Below, in pieces: positions 511 to 10,680 of a stretch of DNA of 10,929 nucleotides. The position numbers and the translations under genes were made by a program. Numbering within the stretch: the stretch's first letter is position 1; each line of letters opens with the position of its first letter. The stretch comes from Nitrosotalea sp. (GTDB lineage Archaea > Thermoproteota > Nitrososphaeria > Nitrososphaerales > Nitrosopumilaceae), in assembly GCA_050749285.1 (NCBI GenBank), contig JBOGQX010000022.1, forward strand, positions 1 through 10,929, given 5' to 3'. Under the pieces are notes generated by a model. The model was given only the letters and a program-made list of their open reading frames with translations. It did not search any database and was not told where the DNA came from.

Positions 511-660
511 CTACAATTCTGTCATCAGAATAATCTTACCATGTTCTTCTGTAAATACCAGAGTTTGCCCAACCTCTACCTTCATCAGCTTTCTTACCTC
601 TTCTGGAATGGTTACCTGATATCGTACAGTTACCTTGCTTGCGCCTAGTATCTTTGCCAT
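511..660 (-). CDS. AbrB/SpoVT/MazE-type swapped-hairpin DNA-binding protein (49 aa)
   Basis: Hand translation from ATG (660-658) to TAG (513-511): MAKILGASKVTVRYQVTIPEEVRKLMKVEVGQTLVFTEEHGKIILMTEL. The pattern (K-V-T-V-x-x-Q-V-T-I-P-x-E-V-R-x-x-M-x-V-x-x-G-x-x-L) is typical of SpoVT-AbrB domains. It falls below the 60-aa ORF-track cutoff. Confidence 0.75.
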   Translation of the reverse strand: MAKILGASKVTVRYQVTIPEEVRKLMKVEVGQTLVFTEEHGKIILMTEL

Positions 661-757
661 CCATCAAGACAAGTAAGATAATCAAGCATTATATGTAGCC
701 ATGAATACCAAGATTACCAAGATAAATCTTATAATCAGATAATTTTACCACAATACA

Positions 758-1528
758 ATGAAAATCAGAACGCTAACAATACTAGCTACAATTCTGACCA
801 TCACAGGAGGTGTCTTCTTTTCAGCACATGCCCAAACCGAACAGGGACAGGTTCCAACATGGTTCAAGGGTGTTGCTGGATATTGGGCAGAGGGAAAGAT
901 CTCACAAGGTGATTTCATTAATGCGATACAATTTCTAGTTAGCCAAAAAGTCATCACCCTCCCAAGCGAAGTTCCTTCTGCAAATGCTCAGACAACAAAC
1001 CAACAAAGTACAGGACAAACCAGTTCAACAACAGTTCAAGGACCACCGGGTCCGCAAGGACCAAAAGGTGACAAAGGAGATACTGGTCCACAGGGAATAG
1101 CCGGACCTCAAGGACCGGCAGGACCACAGGGATCAAAAGGAGATACCGGTCCGCAAGGACCAGTAGGACCACAAGGTGCAGTAGGTCCACAAGGACCTAT
1201 TGGACCGCAGGGACCACCTGCTAAGATCGTGCATCTTAATGCAGGAACATGTGGTTCCACAGTATCTTATGGTGGAGTTTCGGCATCAAGTGGATGGTGT
1301 CCTGCTGGTCTTGGTGTGTCAAATCCAATGTTTTTTATTGCAGATACCACTGTTACAGCAAACTCGGTGGTTTTGGTTACTACAAGTAATCCACCATCTT
1401 CCATTGGAGCTAATTGCTATGTCCTTCAAATATTTCCGGCACAAGGATTTGACCTACTTTGTAGTGGTTCTACATACAACAGTGTGCCAGTTGGTACAAC
1501 ACTAAACTATGCTATACTAAACCCATAG
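758..1528 (+). CDS. secreted collagen-like triple-helix repeat protein with a C-terminal globular domain
   Basis: Signal-peptide-like N-terminus [29 protein letters not shown]-rich motif follows ([34 protein letters not shown]), then an S/T/Q-rich linker, 20 uninterrupted Gly-X-Y triplets, and a 102-aa tail with 4 Cys. Confidence 0.85.
1040..1219 (+). repeat. Gly-X-Y (collagen-like) coding triplet repeat, 20 units
   Basis: [60 protein letters not shown], read directly in the frame of the 758 ORF. At DNA level it is an imperfect GGNCCNCAR-type periodicity. Confidence 0.9.
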
Positions 1529-4279: not shown

Positions 4280-5593
4280 ATGCAAAAATGTTTTAGACTT
4301 TTAGAAGACGATGATGTCAGAAGATGGTACGAGAATCTTTGTCGGGGAAGCAAGCTTACTGCCTCGGTAAGGCTGCGAAGACTGAACCTCTTCTGTATAC
4401 AGCACAAAACAACTCCAAAGGACCTGGTATCTATCGGAAAAGAGGATCCAAAAAAGCTTGAGGATATTTTACATGATCACGTGACAGATCTTGAATCAAA
4501 AAAATATGCGCCAAGCTACATCGAGGATATACTAAAGGCAGTCAGGTCGTGGTTCTCATACAACTATATCGAGCTGAAAAGAAAGATCAAGATAGCAAAC
4601 TCTGACATACCGGTAACACTACAGGACGAGAAGGTACCGTCAAAGCAGGAGCTCAAAGATATCCTAAATGCCGCAACAAGAAGGGCAAGAGCCAGTATCA
4701 GCCTGATGGCATTTGCAGGACTGCGACCTCAGGTTCTTGGAAAAGATGACGGCTCTGACGCATTGAGGATATCAGACATACCCGATCTAGTTGTGGAAAA
4801 AGATGCAGTACACTTCAAAAGAGTTCCTGCAATGATAACAGTACGACAGTCTCTTTCAAAGGCAGGACACAAGTACATCACATTTCTTACAAGCCAGGGG
4901 TGCCAGTATCTTCTTGGGTATCTCAAGGGTCGCATCATGACAGGAGAATCACTTGGACCAGACTCTCCTGTGATATCAGTAAGCAAGGGCTATGATAAAA
5001 AAGGAGGCAGAACAAGCAATCCAATAATCACAACGAAATGCATCACTGCAGAGATAAGAGATGCAATCTGGTCTGTCAAAAAGGCAAGGCCGTATGTGCT
5101 GAGATCATACTTTGATACCCAGCTTCTGCTGGCAGAAAGTCATGGAAGAATTGCACATGCATACAGGCAGTTCTTCATGGGACACAAGGGCGACATGGAA
5201 TCAAGGTACACAACTAACAAGGGAAGGCTGTCTGACGAGATGATAGAGGACATGAGAAGAACCTTTCAGCAAAGCGAGCAGTTTCTCTCCACAGACGAGA
5301 TACAGGAAAAGGACAAGAAGGAACTCCTCCTTGAGATGTGGCGCGAGCAGGCAAAACTCTACGGAATCAATCCACTAAAGATCAAGATAGAGAAGCAGAG
5401 AGATGAAGAAGGCACACCTGGTCTTGATGATGAAATTCTTGCAATAAAGGATGCAATTGTAAAATCAAGAGAGGAAAGGTATGAGGGAAAGCTGGTATCA
5501 GAAGACGAGCTTGTTGCGTTTATAGAGCAAGGGTGGGATATCATAAAAGAACTACAGAACGGCAAGGTCCTTGTGCGAAAGAGGGCTCTGTAG
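4280..5593 (+). CDS. tyrosine recombinase / integrase with a long C-terminal extension
   Basis: Catalytic signature read in order: AFAGLRPQVL (Arg I), HKYITFL (Lys region), YVLRSYFDT (Arg II box), FMGHKGDMESRYT (His and the nucleophilic Tyr at nt 5207-5209). A helical core-binding-like N-domain starts at MQKCFRLLEDDDVRRWYENL. The start is uncertain: ATG 4280 is preferred, with alternatives ATG 4184, ATG 4115 and GTG 4103. Confidence 0.85.
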   Translation: MQKCFRLLEDDDVRRWYENLCRGSKLTASVRLRRLNLFCIQHKTTPKDLVSIGKEDPKKLEDILHDHVTDLESKKYAPSYIEDILKAVRSWFSYNYIELKRKIKIANSDIPVTLQDEKVPSKQELKDILNAATRRARASISLMAFAGLRPQVLGKDDGSDALRISDIPDLVVEKDAVHFKRVPAMITVRQSLSKAGHKYITFLTSQGCQYLLGYLKGRIMTGESLGPDSPVISVSKGYDKKGGRTSNPIITTKCITAEIRDAIWSVKKARPYVLRSYFDTQLLLAESHGRIAHAYRQFFMGHKGDMESRYTTNKGRLSDEMIEDMRRTFQQSEQFLSTDEIQEKDKKELLLEMWREQAKLYGINPLKIKIEKQRDEEGTPGLDDEILAIKDAIVKSREERYEGKLVSEDELVAFIEQGWDIIKELQNGKVLVRKRAL

Positions 5594-5896: not shown

Positions 5897-6000
5897 TACA
5901 GATGATTCGGCTATTGCTTTTAAGGAGTTCAGCGATACGTGTCATCATGACATTCAAGATCTCTTACTCCATTATAGGGCCTCTGTATAACACTCAAATT

Positions 6001-6040
6001 CCTAAAGGTAGACTGAAAATTTTTTTAGCGTACCTTTAGG
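6001..6040. repeat. palindromic site A (10-bp perfect arms, 20-bp spacer)
   Basis: CCTAAAGGTA (6001-6010) and TACCTTTAGG (6031-6040) are exact reverse complements. The spacer is GACTGAAAATTTTTTTAGCG. It shares the core GACTGAAAATTTTTT and the half-site AAAGGTA with site B at 7870-7909. Confidence 0.8.
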
Positions 6041-6169
6041 AAAATCATTTCATGGAAACTCGCTGTTATGAAGAGCTTCTTGTTTTACACCATGGGAGCC
6101 AAGAGAAGTAAAAAAATTCTTCTGCTGAACTGAAAACGCGGGACAAAAGGCCTGAAATTATTGGTCGAT

Positions 6170-6203: not shown

Positions 6204-6265
6204 GGTTTGAAAGTCTCACCACTTTGCCAAGATCTTTTCCAATAACAGCTCACTCTAAAGGGTCC

Positions 6266-6300
6266 ATTACGCCAAATGGCGTTACGCTAAACGGCGTAAC
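6266..6300. repeat. GC-rich cluster of four TTACGCC/GGCGTAA half-sites, able to form alternative hairpins
   Basis: ACGCCA (6269-6274) pairs with TGGCGT (6277-6282). GTTACGC (6281-6287) pairs with GCGTAAC (6294-6300). TTACGCC (6267-6273) can also pair with GGCGTAA (6293-6299). Confidence 0.7.
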
Positions 6301-6417
6301 ATGTGAAGATTCATTTGTCATAAAGTTCTGATTCCCGATTTTACTTTATAAAGCTATTTTACTTTATCAAATAATCCGCCCATCAATACATACTAATTCC
6401 TATAACAGGCGCCAAAT

Positions 6418-6456
6418 TGTAGACAATGTAGACATTTTTTGTCTACATTGTCGACT
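6418..6456. promoter_or_regulatory. 39-bp palindromic octamer array L at the 3' end of the ATPase gene
   Basis: TGTAGACA (6418-6425), A, TGTAGACA (6427-6434), TTTTT, TGTCTACA (6440-6447), T, TGTCGACT (6449-6456). The layout is 8-1-8-5-8-1-8. The ATPase stop codon (6443-6445) lies inside the third octamer. Confidence 0.8.
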
Positions 6457-7621
6457 TTCGTACAAGATACTGCTTTAGCAATGGAACAGAAAAACGGTAA
6501 ATTCCACGTTTGTAGTTATAAATCAGACCTTTCTCCTCAAGCCTTTTCATGTATTTTGACAATGTAGTTCGTTCCATTCTTGTCCTTTTCTTGATAAAAT
6601 CAAACGGGATGTCAGTAACAGTTGCGCCCGCCATGGCAATAATCACTTTTTGCTCATCGTCACTCAATATCTCTAGTCTAGGATCAAAAAAGTCATCATC
6701 AAGTTGTTTTGTAATCATAGGACTGATTCTGTCATAATTACTTAGGGAAATTTTCTTCTTATCACTCATATTGATTAACTCCTTACAGTAAAATTGAATA
6801 AAATATGGATACTGACCAGTTTCGGTGACAATCTTTTCAACAAGAGGTTTTTCAAATTTGTACTCGCTTTTATCTAGCGGCTTTGTAATTGCAAATGCTG
6901 CTTCTTCCTTGCCTAGATTTCCAACCTCCAATGATTTGTACATGCGTTCAGAATATGATCTTGCTTCTTTAATATTGAGATGGAGGTTTGGTAGACCGGA
7001 AAAAACTGCAAAATATTTACAGCCAGCCTTTTGCACTTCATTTAGCACTCCCATGAAATCAGAAAGAACAAACCACTTTTTGTATGGCACATCGTAGATT
7101 GAATGAAATTCGTCAAAAAGGAAGATGACTCCTTTGTAATTACTGTTTTCAAAGATTTTCCAATTCTTGGTAAGATACTCCTTCAGATGATCCTCAAATG
7201 GTACACCAGAAGCTGAACTGTATGACGGTTCATAATAGAAAACATCTGGAATTCCTACATGTTTCGGTCTAACATAAGAGAGAATTGAAGTAAACTTGTC
7301 TTTTATTCGCTTGACTCTGGAAAATGTACCCATTGCAGTCTTTATGTCGTATTTTAATGCCTTGGTAAACTCATCTGGATCACAGTATTTCTTACTAAAC
7401 TGTGCTCTCTTAATAGGAAGAAATCCATGACTTACACACAACTTACTAAATTCTTCCATGAGAACCGTTTTTCCAGTACCTCGTAAACCATATACTATCA
7501 GATTCTCAACATGACCGTCATTAATGCTCTTTAACATTTGTTCAAACCTTGCCAAATGTTCTTGCCTCCCAGCAAGATAAGGAGGAGGCGCTCCTGAACC
7601 GGGATTGAATGGATTATTCAT
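6443..7621 (-). CDS. AAA+ ATPase with C-terminal winged-helix domain (archaeal ATPase / Orc1-Cdc6-like architecture)
   Basis: N-terminal FNPGSGAPPPYLAGRQEHLARFEQML, Walker A GLRGTGKT, Walker B VIFLFDEFH. The C-terminal wHTH-like segment is DEQKVIIAMAGA…TTLSKYMKRLEEKGLIYNYKRGIYRFSVPLLKQYL. I place the start at ATG 7621-7619 (MNNPFNPG). The track start at 7639 is a TTG inside the upstream palindrome. Confidence 0.85.
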   Translation of the reverse strand: MNNPFNPGSGAPPPYLAGRQEHLARFEQMLKSINDGHVENLIVYGLRGTGKTVLMEEFSKLCVSHGFLPIKRAQFSKKYCDPDEFTKALKYDIKTAMGTFSRVKRIKDKFTSILSYVRPKHVGIPDVFYYEPSYSSASGVPFEDHLKEYLTKNWKIFENSNYKGVIFLFDEFHSIYDVPYKKWFVLSDFMGVLNEVQKAGCKYFAVFSGLPNLHLNIKEARSYSERMYKSLEVGNLGKEEAAFAITKPLDKSEYKFEKPLVEKIVTETGQYPYFIQFYCKELINMSDKKKISLSNYDRISPMITKQLDDDFFDPRLEILSDDEQKVIIAMAGATVTDIPFDFIKKRTRMERTTLSKYMKRLEEKGLIYNYKRGIYRFSVPLLKQYLVRKSTM

Positions 7622-7660
7622 TGTAGACAATGTCGACAAATAATGTCTACATTGTCTACA
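7622..7660. promoter_or_regulatory. 39-bp palindromic octamer array R abutting the ATPase start codon (candidate operator)
   Basis: TGTAGACA (7622-7629), A, TGTCGACA (7631-7638), AATAA, TGTCTACA (7644-7651), T, TGTCTACA (7653-7660). It has the same 8-1-8-5-8-1-8 layout as array L and starts one base after the ATG (7619-7621). Confidence 0.8.
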
Positions 7661-7736
7661 TTATAAGCAGTGTGGAGTCTATGGATTCACTGATGAATTA
7701 TTTGCAGAATGGCTTAAACTGTCTGATTCCTTGTAA
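7644..7736 (+). pseudogene. relic of the C-terminus of a second, paralogous ATPase/wHTH gene
   Basis: The plus frame is open from 7644 to TAA (7734-7736) with no start codon. It ends …YKQCGVYGFTDELFAEWLKLSDSL*, which aligns with the intact ATPase C-terminus YKR-GIYRFSVPLLKQYLVRKSTM*. That gives 7 identities in 23 aligned positions plus V/I, T/S, F/L, W/Y and Q/R pairs, with stops in the same column. Confidence 0.4.
7661..7666 (-). promoter_or_regulatory. candidate TATA box for the ATPase gene
   Basis: TTATAA lies immediately upstream (minus-strand sense) of palindrome R, about 40 nt from the ATG. A start site roughly 25 nt downstream would fall inside the palindrome. Confidence 0.35.
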
Positions 7737-7761
7737 ACTTTACAACTTGTAAACTTTACAA
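7730..7761. repeat. perfect 16-bp tandem duplication forming a 35-bp near-palindrome
   Basis: CTTGTAAACTTTACAA occurs at 7730-7745 and again at 7746-7761. Each unit contains TTGTA-N6-TACAA. The span 7729-7763 equals its reverse complement except at three central C/G positions. Confidence 0.85.
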
Positions 7762-7869
7762 GGATCGGCTACCATGGTCTGACAAGGCAGATCTAATAGT
7801 CAAAGAAGACCCCATACTGTCAAACAAGAGAGGTTTTTGAAAAATGTGATACCTCCACAAGGTAATTTT

Positions 7870-7909
7870 CCTACGTTTGGACTGAAAATTTTTTCAGCCC
7901 AAAGGTAGG
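7870..7909. repeat. palindromic site B (related to site A)
   Basis: CCTACGTTTGG (7870-7880) and CCAAAGGTAGG (7899-7909) match 10 of 11 as reverse complements. The centre is ACTGAAAATTTTTTCAGC, with CTGAAAA/TTTTCAG itself palindromic. It shares GACTGAAAATTTTTT with site A. Confidence 0.75.
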
Positions 7910-8078
7910 ATTTTGGGTATTACACGGGCTTGGTGTATGTGATAAACAAAGAGGTGACATTATAACAGAAAAAATTACATTATTGAAATCTTCACACAAC
8001 GAGTTCTTTAAAGCATGCAAATCACCTCCCGTATTTTTCTCCTTTTAACTTGTTGCAAACTGTATTTCTGAAGATATT

Positions 8079-9017
8079 GTGTACTTTATCAGAAAGATAA
8101 GAAGGACCAAAAAGCGTATAGACAAGAGCTCGTTTATCGTATCTATTCCAAAAAAGTTACAACAAAAGCTGGAATCTCACAATCAAGAAATAGCAGCAAG
8201 GCTTGCAAATTTTTCACGGTTACGCTATTTTTACGATGATACCGAAGGCTCTAGGTGCTTTCTATTGGTACTATGGAGCAGCGAACTGCCACCAAATTAT
8301 GCATCTGACAAGACCAAGACAACCACAATACAGAAGAGCGGCAGGACAAGCAGGTATGTTATCATACCAAGGAAGGTGTGCTACAGGTACGGGTGGGGCG
8401 CGGGAACCGAGCTTGTGATTGGACTTGATTATGATATGGATGAATATGTGCAGGGTACAATATACAAGGACGGTGACTTTGTACCATCAGAAAAAGATCC
8501 TGAGCCCTGTGTCATAAAATTCCAGAGGTACCAGGACATGAAGAAGTTGTACAGTGCAAGACTTGAAAAGAAAAAGGAAGATCTTGCAAGGCAGGAAAGT
8601 GACGCATACTGGTCTACCCGCAACAAACCATCCAATTATGGTATCATCATGGACAGGATAAATTATGAAAGAAAGAACATACACAAGCTTGTCTGGAACC
8701 GACTGTTGCAGATGAACCTTGTCGCAATATCGTACACTGACTTTGTAAAGCTCAGGTCAGAGAAGGAAAGGGAGAAGAAGAAAAAGAGAAAAGAATTTCT
8801 GCAGAAAAGATATGGTAACAGGTCAACGTGGCAATACAGAAAGGATATCGTCAGGACCGGCAAGAGTTATGGATATGATTACGATGCACGGCGCGAGAGC
8901 ATCTTGGATGATCCTGATGCGTATCTAGAGGCAAAGAGTGACGATCCTGAGCTATACGGAGAGGAAAGATCTGAGAGCAAAAGCTCGTACCATGAAGATG
9001 AATCTGAAGACTTCTAG
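8079..9017 (+). CDS. hypothetical protein with two AbrB-like motifs, a K/E-rich central region and an acidic C-terminal tail (candidate adaptor of the actin-like ATPase)
   Basis: GTG start, 312 aa. SSFIVSIPKKLQQKL and TSRYVIIPRKVCYRYGWGAGTELVIGL resemble the x-V-x-I-P-K/R-K strand-turn of SpoVT/AbrB domains. A charged helical segment follows (EKEREKKKKRKEFLQKR). The tail is DDPELYGEERSESKSSYHEDESEDF. It stops 32 nt before the next gene. Confidence 0.5.
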   Translation: MYFIRKIRRTKKRIDKSSFIVSIPKKLQQKLESHNQEIAARLANFSRLRYFYDDTEGSRCFLLVLWSSELPPNYASDKTKTTTIQKSGRTSRYVIIPRKVCYRYGWGAGTELVIGLDYDMDEYVQGTIYKDGDFVPSEKDPEPCVIKFQRYQDMKKLYSARLEKKKEDLARQESDAYWSTRNKPSNYGIIMDRINYERKNIHKLVWNRLLQMNLVAISYTDFVKLRSEKEREKKKKRKEFLQKRYGNRSTWQYRKDIVRTGKSYGYDYDARRESILDDPDAYLEAKSDDPELYGEERSESKSSYHEDESEDF

Positions 9018-9049: not shown

Positions 9050-9916
9050 ATGGCATGCGAGAACCATGATGATATAGTAGCAATAGATGCTGGAACGGGA
9101 TTTGTAAAATGTGTCTCTGCGCACATGCGGGTATCATTCCCATCCATATATGGAACAAGACGACTGACAAGATGGGAGGATCCAAAGGAAGGAACGGTCG
9201 AAGCTGTAGGATACGAGGCAGTCAAGATGTCAACCTATCCTGATACCGTATTGGTAAGGGCTGTGCTTGAGGGCAGGATAGCAGAAGAGAAGGCCTTTGT
9301 AGCTATCATCAGGGAGGCAGTTAGAATGCTTGGATGTGAGCGCGATCTTGGATCGTTTGTTGTTGTAATGGGCCTTCCATATGGTGCAGCGCAGCAGAAA
9401 CAGTACCTTGAGAAATTAGTAGAGCGAATCTTAAAGCCAAGGCAGGTGCTTGTCATACCGCAATCGATTGGCACGCTCCTGTCGGAAGATGCAAGGACTG
9501 GTATGGTACTCTCGATAGGGCAGGGAACTACAGAGCTTGTCCTCTTTGAAGACCTCAAGCCAGTTGCCGGAATCTCGATTCCGCAAGCTTGTGACTATCT
9601 GTACGAAGATCTTGCATATCTTGAACATGAAAAAAATACTGCAGACAAGAAAAAAATAGATGCACTGACTACAATTCTTGCCAACAAGCTTGCAGTCTTC
9701 AAGACCAGACTGAACAAGGAATATGACATCTACATGTCAGGTGGGGGAGTGCTTGTAGAGGGACTGTGCGAGTCTTTACATGCCAAGGTCCACGACAAAC
9801 TCAAGATTGTAAAAGATCCACTCTACTCTAACGCGACAGGACTCTACAAGCTTGGCGGGATGGTATCGTTACCATCATCTAGTACTGAAGGTCAGCAAGC
9901 GATATTCCACCCATAA
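9050..9916 (+). CDS. actin-fold ATPase, ParM/MreB-like (candidate segregation NTPase)
   Basis: Actin-fold motifs appear in order: phosphate-1 IVAIDAGTGFVK, SFPSIYG, VVVMGLPYG, VLVIPQSIGTLL, phosphate-2 VLSIGQGTTELVLF, adenosine IYMSGGGVLV, and the C-terminal DPLYSNATGLYKLG. Confidence 0.75.
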   Translation: MACENHDDIVAIDAGTGFVKCVSAHMRVSFPSIYGTRRLTRWEDPKEGTVEAVGYEAVKMSTYPDTVLVRAVLEGRIAEEKAFVAIIREAVRMLGCERDLGSFVVVMGLPYGAAQQKQYLEKLVERILKPRQVLVIPQSIGTLLSEDARTGMVLSIGQGTTELVLFEDLKPVAGISIPQACDYLYEDLAYLEHEKNTADKKKIDALTTILANKLAVFKTRLNKEYDIYMSGGGVLVEGLCESLHAKVHDKLKIVKDPLYSNATGLYKLGGMVSLPSSSTEGQQAIFHP

Positions 9917-10187
9917 TGACGTTCTCCTTTTCTTTTGTTACTTGATTTACGGATTCGACTGTGACAGTATCATGCTTGTTACTTTCTGTACTACCGCCAA
10001 GAATCCTATTTTCTTTTGATACTACAAACCTGTTCTCTTCAAGCTTGAAGTAGAGTACGCCACCTTTCTCAATATGCAGCGCTTTGCAGATCTTTCTTGG
10101 TATCGTGACCGCAAGCGAGTGCTTGGGCTCACGCCCAATCTTTACCACACGTCTTGCATAGATTTTGGATATAGTACTATACAACAA
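9879..10187 (-). CDS. AbrB/SpoVT-type DNA-binding protein (102 aa)
   Basis: ARRVVKIGREPKHSLAVTIPRKICKALHIEKGGVLYFKLEENRFVVSKE matches the SpoVT-AbrB swapped-hairpin pattern. TTG start at 10187, with GTG 10151 as an alternative. Its 3' end overlaps the actin-like gene by 38 nt. Confidence 0.65.
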   Translation of the reverse strand: MLYSTISKIYARRVVKIGREPKHSLAVTIPRKICKALHIEKGGVLYFKLEENRFVVSKENRILGGSTESNKHDTVTVESVNQVTKEKENVIMGGISLADLQY

Positions 10188-10217: not shown

Positions 10218-10257
10218 AAAAACTATATGGTTTTGCCTCCAAAAACTATATGGTTTT
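10218..10257. promoter_or_regulatory. two direct copies of the 17-bp near-palindrome AAAAACTATATGGTTTT (candidate operator/centromere, overlapping the AbrB promoter)
   Basis: Copies lie at 10218-10234 and 10241-10257, 23 bp apart. A partial inverted half-site AAAACCATA sits at 10209-10217. Copy 1 lies 31-47 bp upstream of the TTG start of the minus-strand AbrB gene and contains a TATA-like core. Confidence 0.6.
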
Positions 10258-10473
10258 TCCTGCTGCACTATGTAGCTTTTCCGACAAAACCAAGGTATCC
10301 ATTCAGAAAAAAGTAAGGAAATCTGATGCTCAAGAACAGTCCATGCGTAAAAATTTCCTTGTTTTTGCCAAAAAAGCGCTTTACCGCCATATTATACGTA
10401 TTTTATTTTTTATTTTCTTTTTTCTTTGTGCAGTTTTACCATCTTGACTTTCTATCTAGTTTTCTTTCTCTTG

Positions 10474-10490
10474 AAAACCATATAGTTTTT
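10474..10490. repeat. inverted third copy of the 17-bp near-palindrome
   Basis: AAAACCATATAGTTTTT is the exact reverse complement of AAAAACTATATGGTTTT. Confidence 0.8.
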
Positions 10491-10680
10491 AGATTACCAT
10501 TTTTCTGTTGTTTTTACATTTGATCTGCAATCTCTTTTCTCCTAGAATTCTCCTTTCTGCTTATTCTACTCTAATTCTCATCTCTCTAACTTTTTCTTTT
10601 CCATTATCATTCCTGCCTATCTGAATACTGCACCAAGATCTAATACATCAAGTACGCCATCACCATTGATATCACCAGAT

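Follow-up and report, generated by a model that had tools for sequence, protein, structure and literature searches.

The lambda CI gene lies between the operator clusters OR and OL, and cooperative looping tightens its autoregulation. MalT binds repeated boxes after nucleotide-dependent multimerisation, and F shows the order incB-repE-incC and has its sopC centromere downstream of sopB. P1, with incA, repA, incC and oriR, has its initiator gene between its own sites (the order incA, repA, incC is listed in PMC6906374), and Orc1-2 of Saccharolobus, an AAA+ protein with a winged helix, is a sequence-specific transcription regulator (PMC6061795, PMC9738581). Here we describe a locus in a 10,929-nt stretch of DNA from a Nitrosotalea metagenome-assembled genome (MAG), the whole of which we call the window. 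In it a gene for an AAA+ ATPase with a C-terminal winged helix-turn-helix (wHTH) domain is bracketed by two short octamer arrays, L and R. On comparative grounds these arrays are probably the cognate sites of the ATPase encoded between them, which would control its own gene and form a self-contained unit.

Each of these systems resembles the locus in part. In archaeal Orc1/Cdc6 proteins and their origin recognition box (ORB) sites, as here, an AAA+ domain is followed by a C-terminal winged helix and the sites lie beside the gene. By contrast, our ATPase is not an Orc1/Cdc6 member by sequence, its sites bracket the gene rather than an origin and come with no AT-rich unwinding element, and the gene is stand-alone, sometimes multicopy and compositionally foreign. 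The archaeal ATPases SSO1545 (PDB 2fna) and PAB2304 (PDB 2qen), of the PF01637/AAA_16 kind, match it in size, domain order and predicted fold (template modelling (TM) score 0.54-0.63), whereas its own ATPase_2 score is below threshold and the literature searched described no flanking arrays for those proteins. With the iteron replicons P1 and F and with sopC it shares one array over the promoter, suited to autorepression, and another immediately behind the gene, and members of its family also show repeat units of about 40 bp in tandem, each with a predicted binding site, and specificity that diverges between paralogs; it differs in encoding an AAA+ ATPase rather than RepA, RepE or ParB, in lacking origin features and in its many chromosomal copies. 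As with lambda CI, a regulator gene sits between two clusters of its own (here predicted) operators, but the lambda clusters control PR and PL and loop over 2.4 kb and three genes, whilst here the second site lies on the stop codon and no other target is visible. STAND/AAA+ factors such as MalT likewise combine a P-loop NTPase, a helical domain and a C-terminal DNA-binding domain with direct and inverted repeat sites, but our protein is much smaller, has no sensor repeat domain and carries a winged helix rather than a LuxR helix-turn-helix (HTH). The architecture was not described in the literature searched (PF01637, COG1672, AAA_16-winged helix proteins and flanking archaeal operators), nor mentioned in a survey of thaumarchaeal integrated mobile genetic elements, although its novelty is not thereby proven.

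The two arrays and the gene between them

The features of the unit and its flank in the window are as follows.

6443-7621 (minus strand): ATPase gene, 392 aa, AAA+ with C-terminal wHTH; the host is the Nitrosotalea MAG
6418-6456 (minus strand): array L, layout 8-1-8-5-8-1-8, read directly; overlaps the last four codons and the stop of the ATPase gene
7622-7660 (minus strand): array R, a 2+2 palindrome of four octamers from TATA box to ATG; predicted operator overlapping the transcription start
7661-7666 (minus strand): TATA-like box TTATAA, abutting R on its upstream side; putative TATA role, from its position
6391-6417: flank outside L (ccaaat...), resembling the sequence after solo arrays in related elements; 6391-6455 is 85% identical to L015 3207-3270

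On the plus strand L reads TGTAGACA a TGTAGACA ttttt TGTCTACA t TGTCGACT and R reads TGTAGACA a TGTCGACA aataa TGTCTACA t TGTCTACA; in the orientation of the gene L is AGTCGACA a TGTAGACA aaaaa TGTCTACA t TGTCTACA. The set TGTAGACA/TGTCTACA/TGTCGACA brackets this one ATPase gene exactly, and direct reading bears out the initial annotation, made from the letters alone, of two arrays with the same layout around an AAA+/wHTH gene. That annotation assigned all octamers to these three words. Seven do belong to them, but the last octamer of L is TGTCGACT, a 7/8 match rather than a perfect TGTCGACA. The ATG of the minus-strand open reading frame (ORF), at 7619-7621, abuts R, and the TAG stop (cta, 6443-6445) falls within the third octamer of L, so R was rightly placed between TTATAA and the start codon and L over the stop. 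An in-frame TTG within R (7637-7639) offers an alternative start.

The degenerate word TGTMKACA occurs eight times in the 10.9-kb window. Seven copies are in the arrays and one, an unrelated TGTATACA, is at 4394. Shuffled versions of the window had a mean of 0.67 copies and a maximum of three, and none of 200 reached eight. The arrays are thus far from chance. As had been proposed, they are repeats of each other in both senses at once, 84% alike over 43 nt when aligned directly and 92% over 38 nt when one of them is inverted. The low GC content noted for the enclosed gene proved a weak point: the gene lies at 0.35-0.38, against 0.41-0.49 for the integrase and the 8.0-10.0 kb region, but the 1.4-4.2 kb region is at 0.31-0.38, and the contrast is not distinctive.

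In archaeal promoters the centre of the TATA box usually precedes the start site by about 26 nt. By this geometry transcription would begin about 26 nt past the TATA centre, near 7637-7640 and inside R. Both arrays also fold as strong RNA hairpins (-21 and -22 kcal/mol, z about -6, the former at z = -5.8), and the palindromes might act as RNA: L would stabilise or terminate the 3' end as a hairpin, R would form a hairpin at the 5' end, and the spacers that vary between relatives would be their loops. We consider this very unlikely. With the start predicted within R, a 5' hairpin would not be transcribed whole, and L is not followed by a T-run. A role as RNA also leaves unexplained why the 5' and 3' sequences are shared, why an extra fourth octamer lies outside the hairpin core, and why the long tandem arrays of other lineages (described below) consist of non-palindromic direct doublets.

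Conservation of the arrays and their change with the recognition helix

We fetched close orthologs of the ATPase at loci L111 (89% identity), L001 (81%), L112 (79%), L009 (69%), L018 (62%) and L010 (60%). All retain both arrays, while their surroundings differ and represent at least six unrelated contexts, for example between an ApeA-HEPN gene and a SIR2 gene, or beside Mrr and insertion sequence genes; the ATPase is the sole thing these surroundings have in common. DNA homology between the window and L001 extends over 6418-7666 (80% over 1251 nt), that is from the outer edge of L through the TATA box beside R, and then ends; L009 behaves likewise. Judged from these alignments, the arrays belong to the gene and not to its neighbourhood. 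As a separate observation, window 512-733 is 83% identical in DNA to L001 2002-2222, where a 49-aa MazE/AbrB-like protein is encoded, a second segment common to two otherwise unrelated ATPase contexts.

Homology to other contexts that stops at the arrays, together with array complementarity of 92% over 38 nt and faint TniB/IstB-type matches of the ATPase, would also suit terminal inverted repeats of a non-autonomous transposon, with the ATPase as passenger or accessory factor. Such an origin is extremely improbable. None of seven contexts shows a target-site duplication, the ATPase is the sole ORF of the unit, which thus contains no transposase, and the TATA box, although outside R, accompanies it in every case. 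The asymmetric arrays are, moreover, direct and not inverted.

The order of A/T-rich box, array and start codon is the same in seven orthologous lineages, and the second array begins in the last codons. The box at the TATA position is TTATAA, TTTATAA, TTTATAT or TTCTTAAA in all TGTAGACA-type orthologs. In L001 the window's ATG aligns to CCA, so translation there must start at a TTG within the array. When 23 arrays were placed in register, octamers 2, 3 and 4 were nearly invariant. The 5-nt spacer took ten different forms (ttatt, aaaaa, aataa, taatt, aatca, aattt, ttttt, gaatc, acaag and tttct), and the 1-nt linkers between octamers also varied. The conserved core is therefore three octamers, one followed by an inverted doublet at 9-bp period, and the dimer-of-dimers regulator suggested in the initial annotation was too specific in calling for four. 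The outermost fourth octamer is present upstream in closer relatives, is replaced by the TATA box in L010 and L018, and is degenerate downstream where it is coding; the non-coding octamers 3 and 4 of L are kept in orthologs down to 60% identity. In its distribution of fixed and free positions the alignment is a classic phylogenetic footprint, with the putative recognition positions fixed and the spacers free.

A protein-guided scan with one genome per species added 79 loci, and statistics were calculated on 74 non-identical loci. Distant orthologs in Bathyarchaeia, Micrarchaeota, Nitrospirae, Actinobacteria and Akkermansia keep the layout with other motifs, each present upstream and again over or just past the stop codon.

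Bathyarchaeial ortholog: GTATCCA/TGGATAC
Nitrososphaerales: TGGAGACA
Ca. N. devanaterra and Micrarchaeota: TGTAAACA/TGTTTACA
Nitrospirae: GTGTAGTA
Solirubrobacteraceae: GCGTAGCA
Akkermansia: ATTTATGC

Another motif with matching locus ends among the distant orthologs is GGTAAACA. The cultured Ca. Nitrosotalea devanaterra carries an ortholog, L052, with a helix of the LMEL type. In 18 of the 74 loci the regions before and behind the gene had a common word of 10 nt or longer, compared with 2.9% of 5402 mismatched pairs; for words of 12 nt or longer the figures were nine of 74 loci and 0.6% of mismatched pairs. At 14 of the 38 loci with at least 33% identity, the best downstream 7-mer was found again upstream, compared with 3 of 38 in which it recurred inside the gene. 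A permissive statistic from the same analysis (7-mer, one mismatch, at least three copies) was useless for the 3' arrays themselves, where control regions scored equally, and only the comparison of upstream with inside-gene sequence was used.

In an alignment of the C-terminal domain, the first half (351-358) of the predicted recognition helix (residues 351-363) and the wing (residues 367-377) shift with the motif, while the rest of the domain is constant. Helices with LSKY pair with GT(A/C)GACA, LMEL with GTAAACA, ASRS with GGAGACA, IQTH with AGTTGTCAAA and (T/G)KNL with AGTTG(A/G)CA. Three paralogs of one Nitrosopumilaceae genome each have their own helix and their own motif. Across the 74 loci, no family among 1363 neighbouring ORFs was found in more than three loci, which leaves the ATPase as the one plausible protein to read these arrays. 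The comparisons indicate a broad correspondence between the motif and the recognition helix and wing of the ATPase. They strongly support, by comparison of sequences, the initial suggestion that the arrays are operators read by the protein's own C-terminal winged helix: the arrays follow the gene, the octamers are conserved between variable spacers, and helix and motif covary while both ends of a locus remain matched. Paralogs with separate motifs were L038/L041/L042 (one Nitrosopumilaceae MAG), L044/L063, L056/L059 and L062/L077/L085.

A different trans-acting factor of the host or element, of AbrB or ribbon-helix-helix type, might instead bind the arrays and silence or insulate an acquired gene, leaving the winged helix of the ATPase otherwise employed. 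Octamer arrays of 9-bp period look like the targets of small multimeric repressors (MetJ or omega, for example), AbrB/MazE-like genes are present in the window and L001, and solo arrays persist in elements without the ATPase. Nevertheless, no candidate gene co-occurs with the arrays across contexts, and the motif shifts with ATPase lineage and helix even between paralogs of the same genome. Since the motif changes with the ATPase recognition helix, an unlinked factor would need to have co-evolved in step, and we regard such a factor as rather improbable.

Each lineage of a sizeable and functionally blank family now has a predicted motif, a predicted reading helix and a defined cis-element. The matched helix-motif pairs are data for studies of winged-helix recognition and for orthogonal archaeal regulators, and the predicted protein-DNA code together with the conserved cis-array is a useful, fairly unusual lead.

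The protein, its proposed regulation and the 3' tandem arrays

The protein is 100% identical to 'AAA family ATPase [Nitrosotalea sp.]'. It matched PF13191 (AAA_16) with 40.5 bits, above the curated cut-off of 32.6, and PF01637 (ATPase_2) with 22.4 bits, below the cut-off of 33.2. Matches to nSTAND1 and nSTAND6 were weak and those to TniB/IstB-type ATPases only faint; a GLP motif is conserved. The C-terminal region weakly matched the DNA-binding winged helices of LrpA, MarR (residues 338-370), AbiEi and Csa3. Residues G48, G50, K51, D170, E171, E225 and R226, of Walker A, Walker B and arginine-finger type, were invariant in 50 homologs. An AlphaFold model built from the 50 homologs (predicted local distance difference test (pLDDT) 87) has the fold of an AAA+ core, a lid and a wHTH. 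Its best fold matches were DNA-bound Orc1/Cdc6 (2qby_A) and the archaeal ATPases 2fna and 2qen, with TM-scores of 0.5-0.63, best for 2fna and 2qen (0.54-0.63). An Orc1/Cdc6-like arrangement of AAA+ plus C-terminal winged helix in this model speaks for DNA binding. By sequence the protein is not a member of Orc1/Cdc6: it scored 21.7 bits with TIGR02928 against a cut-off of 181.3, over residues 14-60 only, and the Pfam scan gave no match to the Cdc6 C-terminal domain (Cdc6_C). A sequence search of the PDB gave noise at the level of P-loops or HTH domains, and PADLOC and PHROGs searches gave no informative family.

The family is sizeable: clustered at 50% identity, it comprises 648 clusters at E <= 1e-30, and 4524 when the cut-off is relaxed to E <= 1e-10. 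Distant homologs occur on 99 bacterial plasmids, and only one phage record carries a homolog, also distant; the two array patterns had no match among viral contigs. The bacterial plasmid homologs that were examined (25-28% identity) have direct repeats upstream only, uninformative neighbours and no adjoining rep/par genes. Homologs on Rhodococcus linear plasmids (H13, H14) lie 3-7 kb from the record ends in 2-3 copies per plasmid and may fall in terminal repeats.

We propose that each ATPase protomer would use its winged helix to read one octamer, or one 9-bp-period doublet, and that ATP-dependent head-to-tail association of the AAA+ domains would give cooperative binding to the doublet, with two doublets opposed across the variable 5-bp spacer. 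Because R occupies the whole interval from the TATA box to the start codon, repression is predicted: protein on R would exclude TFB and RNA polymerase, resulting in negative autoregulation. Blocking the access of TFB or RNA polymerase is a standard mode of archaeal repressors. In bacterial members, too, the upstream array lies over the promoter or start, covering TTGACA and TATA-like boxes in L060 and the start codon in L066. L, on the stop codon, would be a second assembly site beside the protein's own gene. It could be an auxiliary operator looping to R over 1.2 kb, a protein-buffering sink acting by titration, a transcriptional roadblock or the real working site of the system. Since the promoter and operator directly adjoin the gene and its 3' site, the unit would be functional in any context, and it occurs as a stand-alone module moved horizontally.

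In the Nitrosopumilaceae/Cenarchaeum branch, long tandem arrays lie within a few nt of the ATPase stop, and each of their units holds a 9-bp-period doublet of the lineage-specific motif.

L028: tandem array, 43 bp x 11
L036: tandem array, 38 bp x 9
L040: tandem array, 112 bp x 5
L042: tandem array, 63 bp x 5.5
L037: tandem array, 73 bp x 22 (21.8 copies; 1.6 kb)
L039: tandem array, 9 bp x 12

Tandem Repeats Finder reported a repeat starting between -20 and +120 nt from the stop in 16 of 74 loci, whereas the window has only 3-4 octamers at each end. Across the family the 3' site is commoner than the upstream site, and on this comparison L is best regarded as a 3' cis-array of the kind common to the family, in its minimal form. 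Post-stop arrays with units of 9-112 bp in 3-22 copies were noted in L028, L030, L036, L037, L039-L042, L044, L054 and L056; whole units repeat, so these are not CRISPR arrays. In L039 a second, different array lies directly behind the first.

The arrays might alternatively be maintenance sites of a mobile replicon, either iterons of an Orc1/Cdc6-like initiator or a sopC-like centromere, which we consider unlikely. R would then double as an autoregulatory operator and L would be an origin, handcuffing site or centromere, an equally unlikely assignment. The nearest fold of the model is DNA-bound Orc1/Cdc6, P1 has the order incA, repA, incC (PMC6906374), and homologs occur on the 99 bacterial plasmids. 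The window's element carries an integrase and an actin-like partition cassette with no replication gene recognisable in profile scans, and the Nitrosopumilaceae 3' arrays (43 bp x 11, 38 bp x 9, 112 bp x 5, 73 bp x 22) are sopC- or iteron-like. By contrast, the TIGR02928 score of 21.7 bits is far under its cut-off, with no Orc1/Cdc6 membership, and at 13 loci plus the window edges no AT-rich unwinding element lies by the arrays, the 100 nt past each having the locus average. Chromosomal copies sit amid housekeeping genes, with up to three paralogs per genome, the examined plasmid homologs are not beside rep/par genes, and 'empty' elements (L016, L020) have no ATPase in the slot.

Several observations weigh against self-binding and autoregulation as we propose them. 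Roughly a third of loci with at least 33% identity have a clear 3' array and no clear upstream array (L007, L024, L030, L044, L054, L056, L038, L041 and L042), so promoter autorepression is not the universal purpose of the sites. The only visible target of the regulator is itself, which brings no evident benefit and suggests that something is missing. Solo arrays stand before the 428-aa gene on contigs without the ATPase (L016, L020), as fossils or for another reader, and the palindromes would also form stable RNA hairpins. The helix-motif code is not strict either, as L031 has the helix DASVSL yet a GTC(G/T)ACA motif, and the covariation follows one phylogeny and does not represent independent trials.

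A broader possibility, which we put forward tentatively, is an undescribed two-part system of an Orc-like AAA+/winged-helix protein and a co-evolving cis-array, whose point would be the nucleoprotein complex and not mere autoregulation. Such a system might range from one 39-bp palindrome per gene end to 1.6-kb tandem arrays and have spread horizontally in archaea and some bacteria, a scope we hold no less tentative. Equally tentative candidates for the complex are a new origin, centromere or anchor of integrated elements, a selfish cassette synapsing its own ends, or a defence-island device. The Nitrosopumilaceae tandem arrays may prove to serve thaumarchaeal mobile elements as origins, centromeres or titration loci. 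'Cryptic integrated elements' without identifiable replication functions have been noted as a gap (PMC6563490), which arrays of that kind would fill.

Gain and loss of the unit, and other features of the element

The initial annotation proposed recording what the arrays flank in other genomes. A scan of metagenome contigs found the array beside the ATPase, and also alone in relatives of the window's element. These related elements share the order integrase, 114-119-aa gene (F5), variable slot, 428-aa gene (F2) and a partition-like cassette with an actin-like protein. Three alleles occupy one F5-F2 site.

Filled allele (L111): TATA, R, ATPase gene (89% identical), L
Empty allele (L016, L020): TATA and one array; its spacer and third octamer are those of R, its outer flank is that of L
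Relic allele (L011-L014, L017, L019): last ~70 nt of the ATPase gene and an array

An 'atttgg/gtttag' flank is common to the window, L011-L020 and L111. Filled and empty alleles differ by the gene and one array. Recombination of two near-identical arrays would remove the gene and leave a single array, and the empty allele looks like the expected product of recombination between directly repeated arrays rather than of site-specific recombination, resembling a solo long terminal repeat (LTR); homologous recombination between 39-bp direct repeats would account for the difference between the alleles just as well as a recombinase acting within the site. The mobile or exchangeable cassette of the initial annotation survives in a weaker form, as a module gained and lost with junctions at the arrays, but not as an integrase-driven exchange. 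Filled, empty and relic alleles point to short, predicted protein-binding arrays as module boundaries and as a source of the mosaicism of archaeal mobile elements. A different 422-aa P-loop ATPase with a MarR-like C-terminus and weak AAA_22, AAA_16 and KAP matches lies beside the relic in L012 (2917-4185) and L017 (3414-4682). ATPase/winged-helix genes of several kinds appear to be swapped at the variable slot.

The window itself holds a relic of another gene beside R.

7672-7736 (plus strand): relic gene end, the last 21 codons of another winged-helix gene, GVYGFTDELFAEWLKLSDSL*, 5 nt outside the TATA box

Its translation, GVYGFTDELFAEWLKLSDSL*, matches the tail of a 65-aa winged-helix ORF in L015 (DNA 79% over 92 nt), so the gene relic noted initially at 7644-7736 is real, at 7672-7736. 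As the relic is truncated there, the upstream edge of the unit is a breakpoint. Relative to F5, the window's unit is opposite in orientation to that of L111, and the inverted segment includes the TATA box as well as the 'atttgg' sequence flanking the unit on its outside. The unit must therefore have come by a rearrangement with breakpoints at, and not within, its ends. We rejected array-mediated inversion as the source of this orientation, since the TATA box and the 'atttgg' flank are inverted along with the unit. L015 was likewise rejected as a clean empty site for the window, as the counterpart of 7672-7763 there has the inverted orientation and is 70 nt distant.

The arrays had also been proposed as recombinase sites, and they might be core sites for excision, inversion or exchange of the cassette by the neighbouring tyrosine integrase or by some other site-specific recombinase. 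They form an inverted repeat about a short spacer, an integrase gene lies close to L, the junctions of the filled, empty and relic alleles fall in the array, and a relic lies at the unit edge. The recombinase reported 850 bp away is indeed encoded by an ORF ending 824 nt from L, although it is only weakly recognisable as an integrase: the XerA model gave 23.8 bits against a cut-off of 220, while some sources name its homologs 'site-specific integrase'. With tblastn its homologs were confined to the window's own element family and did not appear beside L001, L009, L010, L018, L025 or other array-flanked orthologs. The central spacers of partner arrays differ in every ortholog pair (TTTTT and AATAA in the window), and they are 5 bp long rather than an identical 6-8 bp crossover spacer. 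The 1+2 asymmetry of the arrays has the same polarity at both gene ends, the breakpoints of the inversion relative to L111 lie outside the arrays because the TATA box and outer flank are included, and the motif covaries with the ATPase and not with a recombinase. A role as recombination sites thus has very little likelihood.

ARAGORN found no tRNA in the window, so there is no tRNA-type attachment site in it, and Rfam gave no RNA family. Where the host is GC-rich, the ATPase genes have a clearly higher AT content than the DNA around them (in L042, for example, 54 vs 35% AT), which fits horizontal acquisition. Copies are also present on large chromosomal contigs amid housekeeping genes, and one genome may carry as many as three paralogs.

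Further repeats surround the unit. Window 5999-6042 and 7867-7911 are related ~44-nt palindromes with the centre CTGAAAATTTTTTCAG, 81% alike over 31 nt. They bracket the ATPase unit ~375 nt outside L and ~205 nt outside R and, among 110 loci, occur only in the window's own contigs. Two tandem TTACGCCnnnnGGCGTAA palindromes at 6265-6307 have copies in L011, L012, L015, L017 and L111, where their position relative to the 114-aa gene varies. Next to them, 6310-6375 is a promoter-like module of CTTTATAAAG and two copies of ATTTTACTTTAT that resembles a shuffled regulatory cassette; in L012 it lies before the 422-aa P-loop/winged-helix ATPase and again before the relic of the ATPase designated F1.

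On the other side of the unit, 7728-7764 holds two copies of the tandem and palindromic TTGTAAACTTTACAA upstream of a 312-aa gene (8079-9017) and an ALP/ParM-type actin-like gene (9050-9916). This repeat, 79% conserved in L015, may serve a type-II-like partition cassette as centromere or operator. A tandem pair of AAAAACTATATGGTTTT and an inverted copy 216 nt off (10218-10261 and 10474-10493) adjoin an AbrB/MazE-like gene (9879-10187, minus strand) and are probably another operator set. Window 758-1528 encodes a secreted protein with collagen-like GPQ triplets (Pfam Collagen, 36.7 bits) and a DNA periodicity of 9-36 nt. Past the right end of the window, the same contig in another assembly (L005 1-5374) carries a type I CRISPR-Cas set (cas6, a 500-aa gene, cas7/DevR, cas5 and cas3) and a Holliday-junction-resolvase-like gene, placing the element in or beside a defence region.

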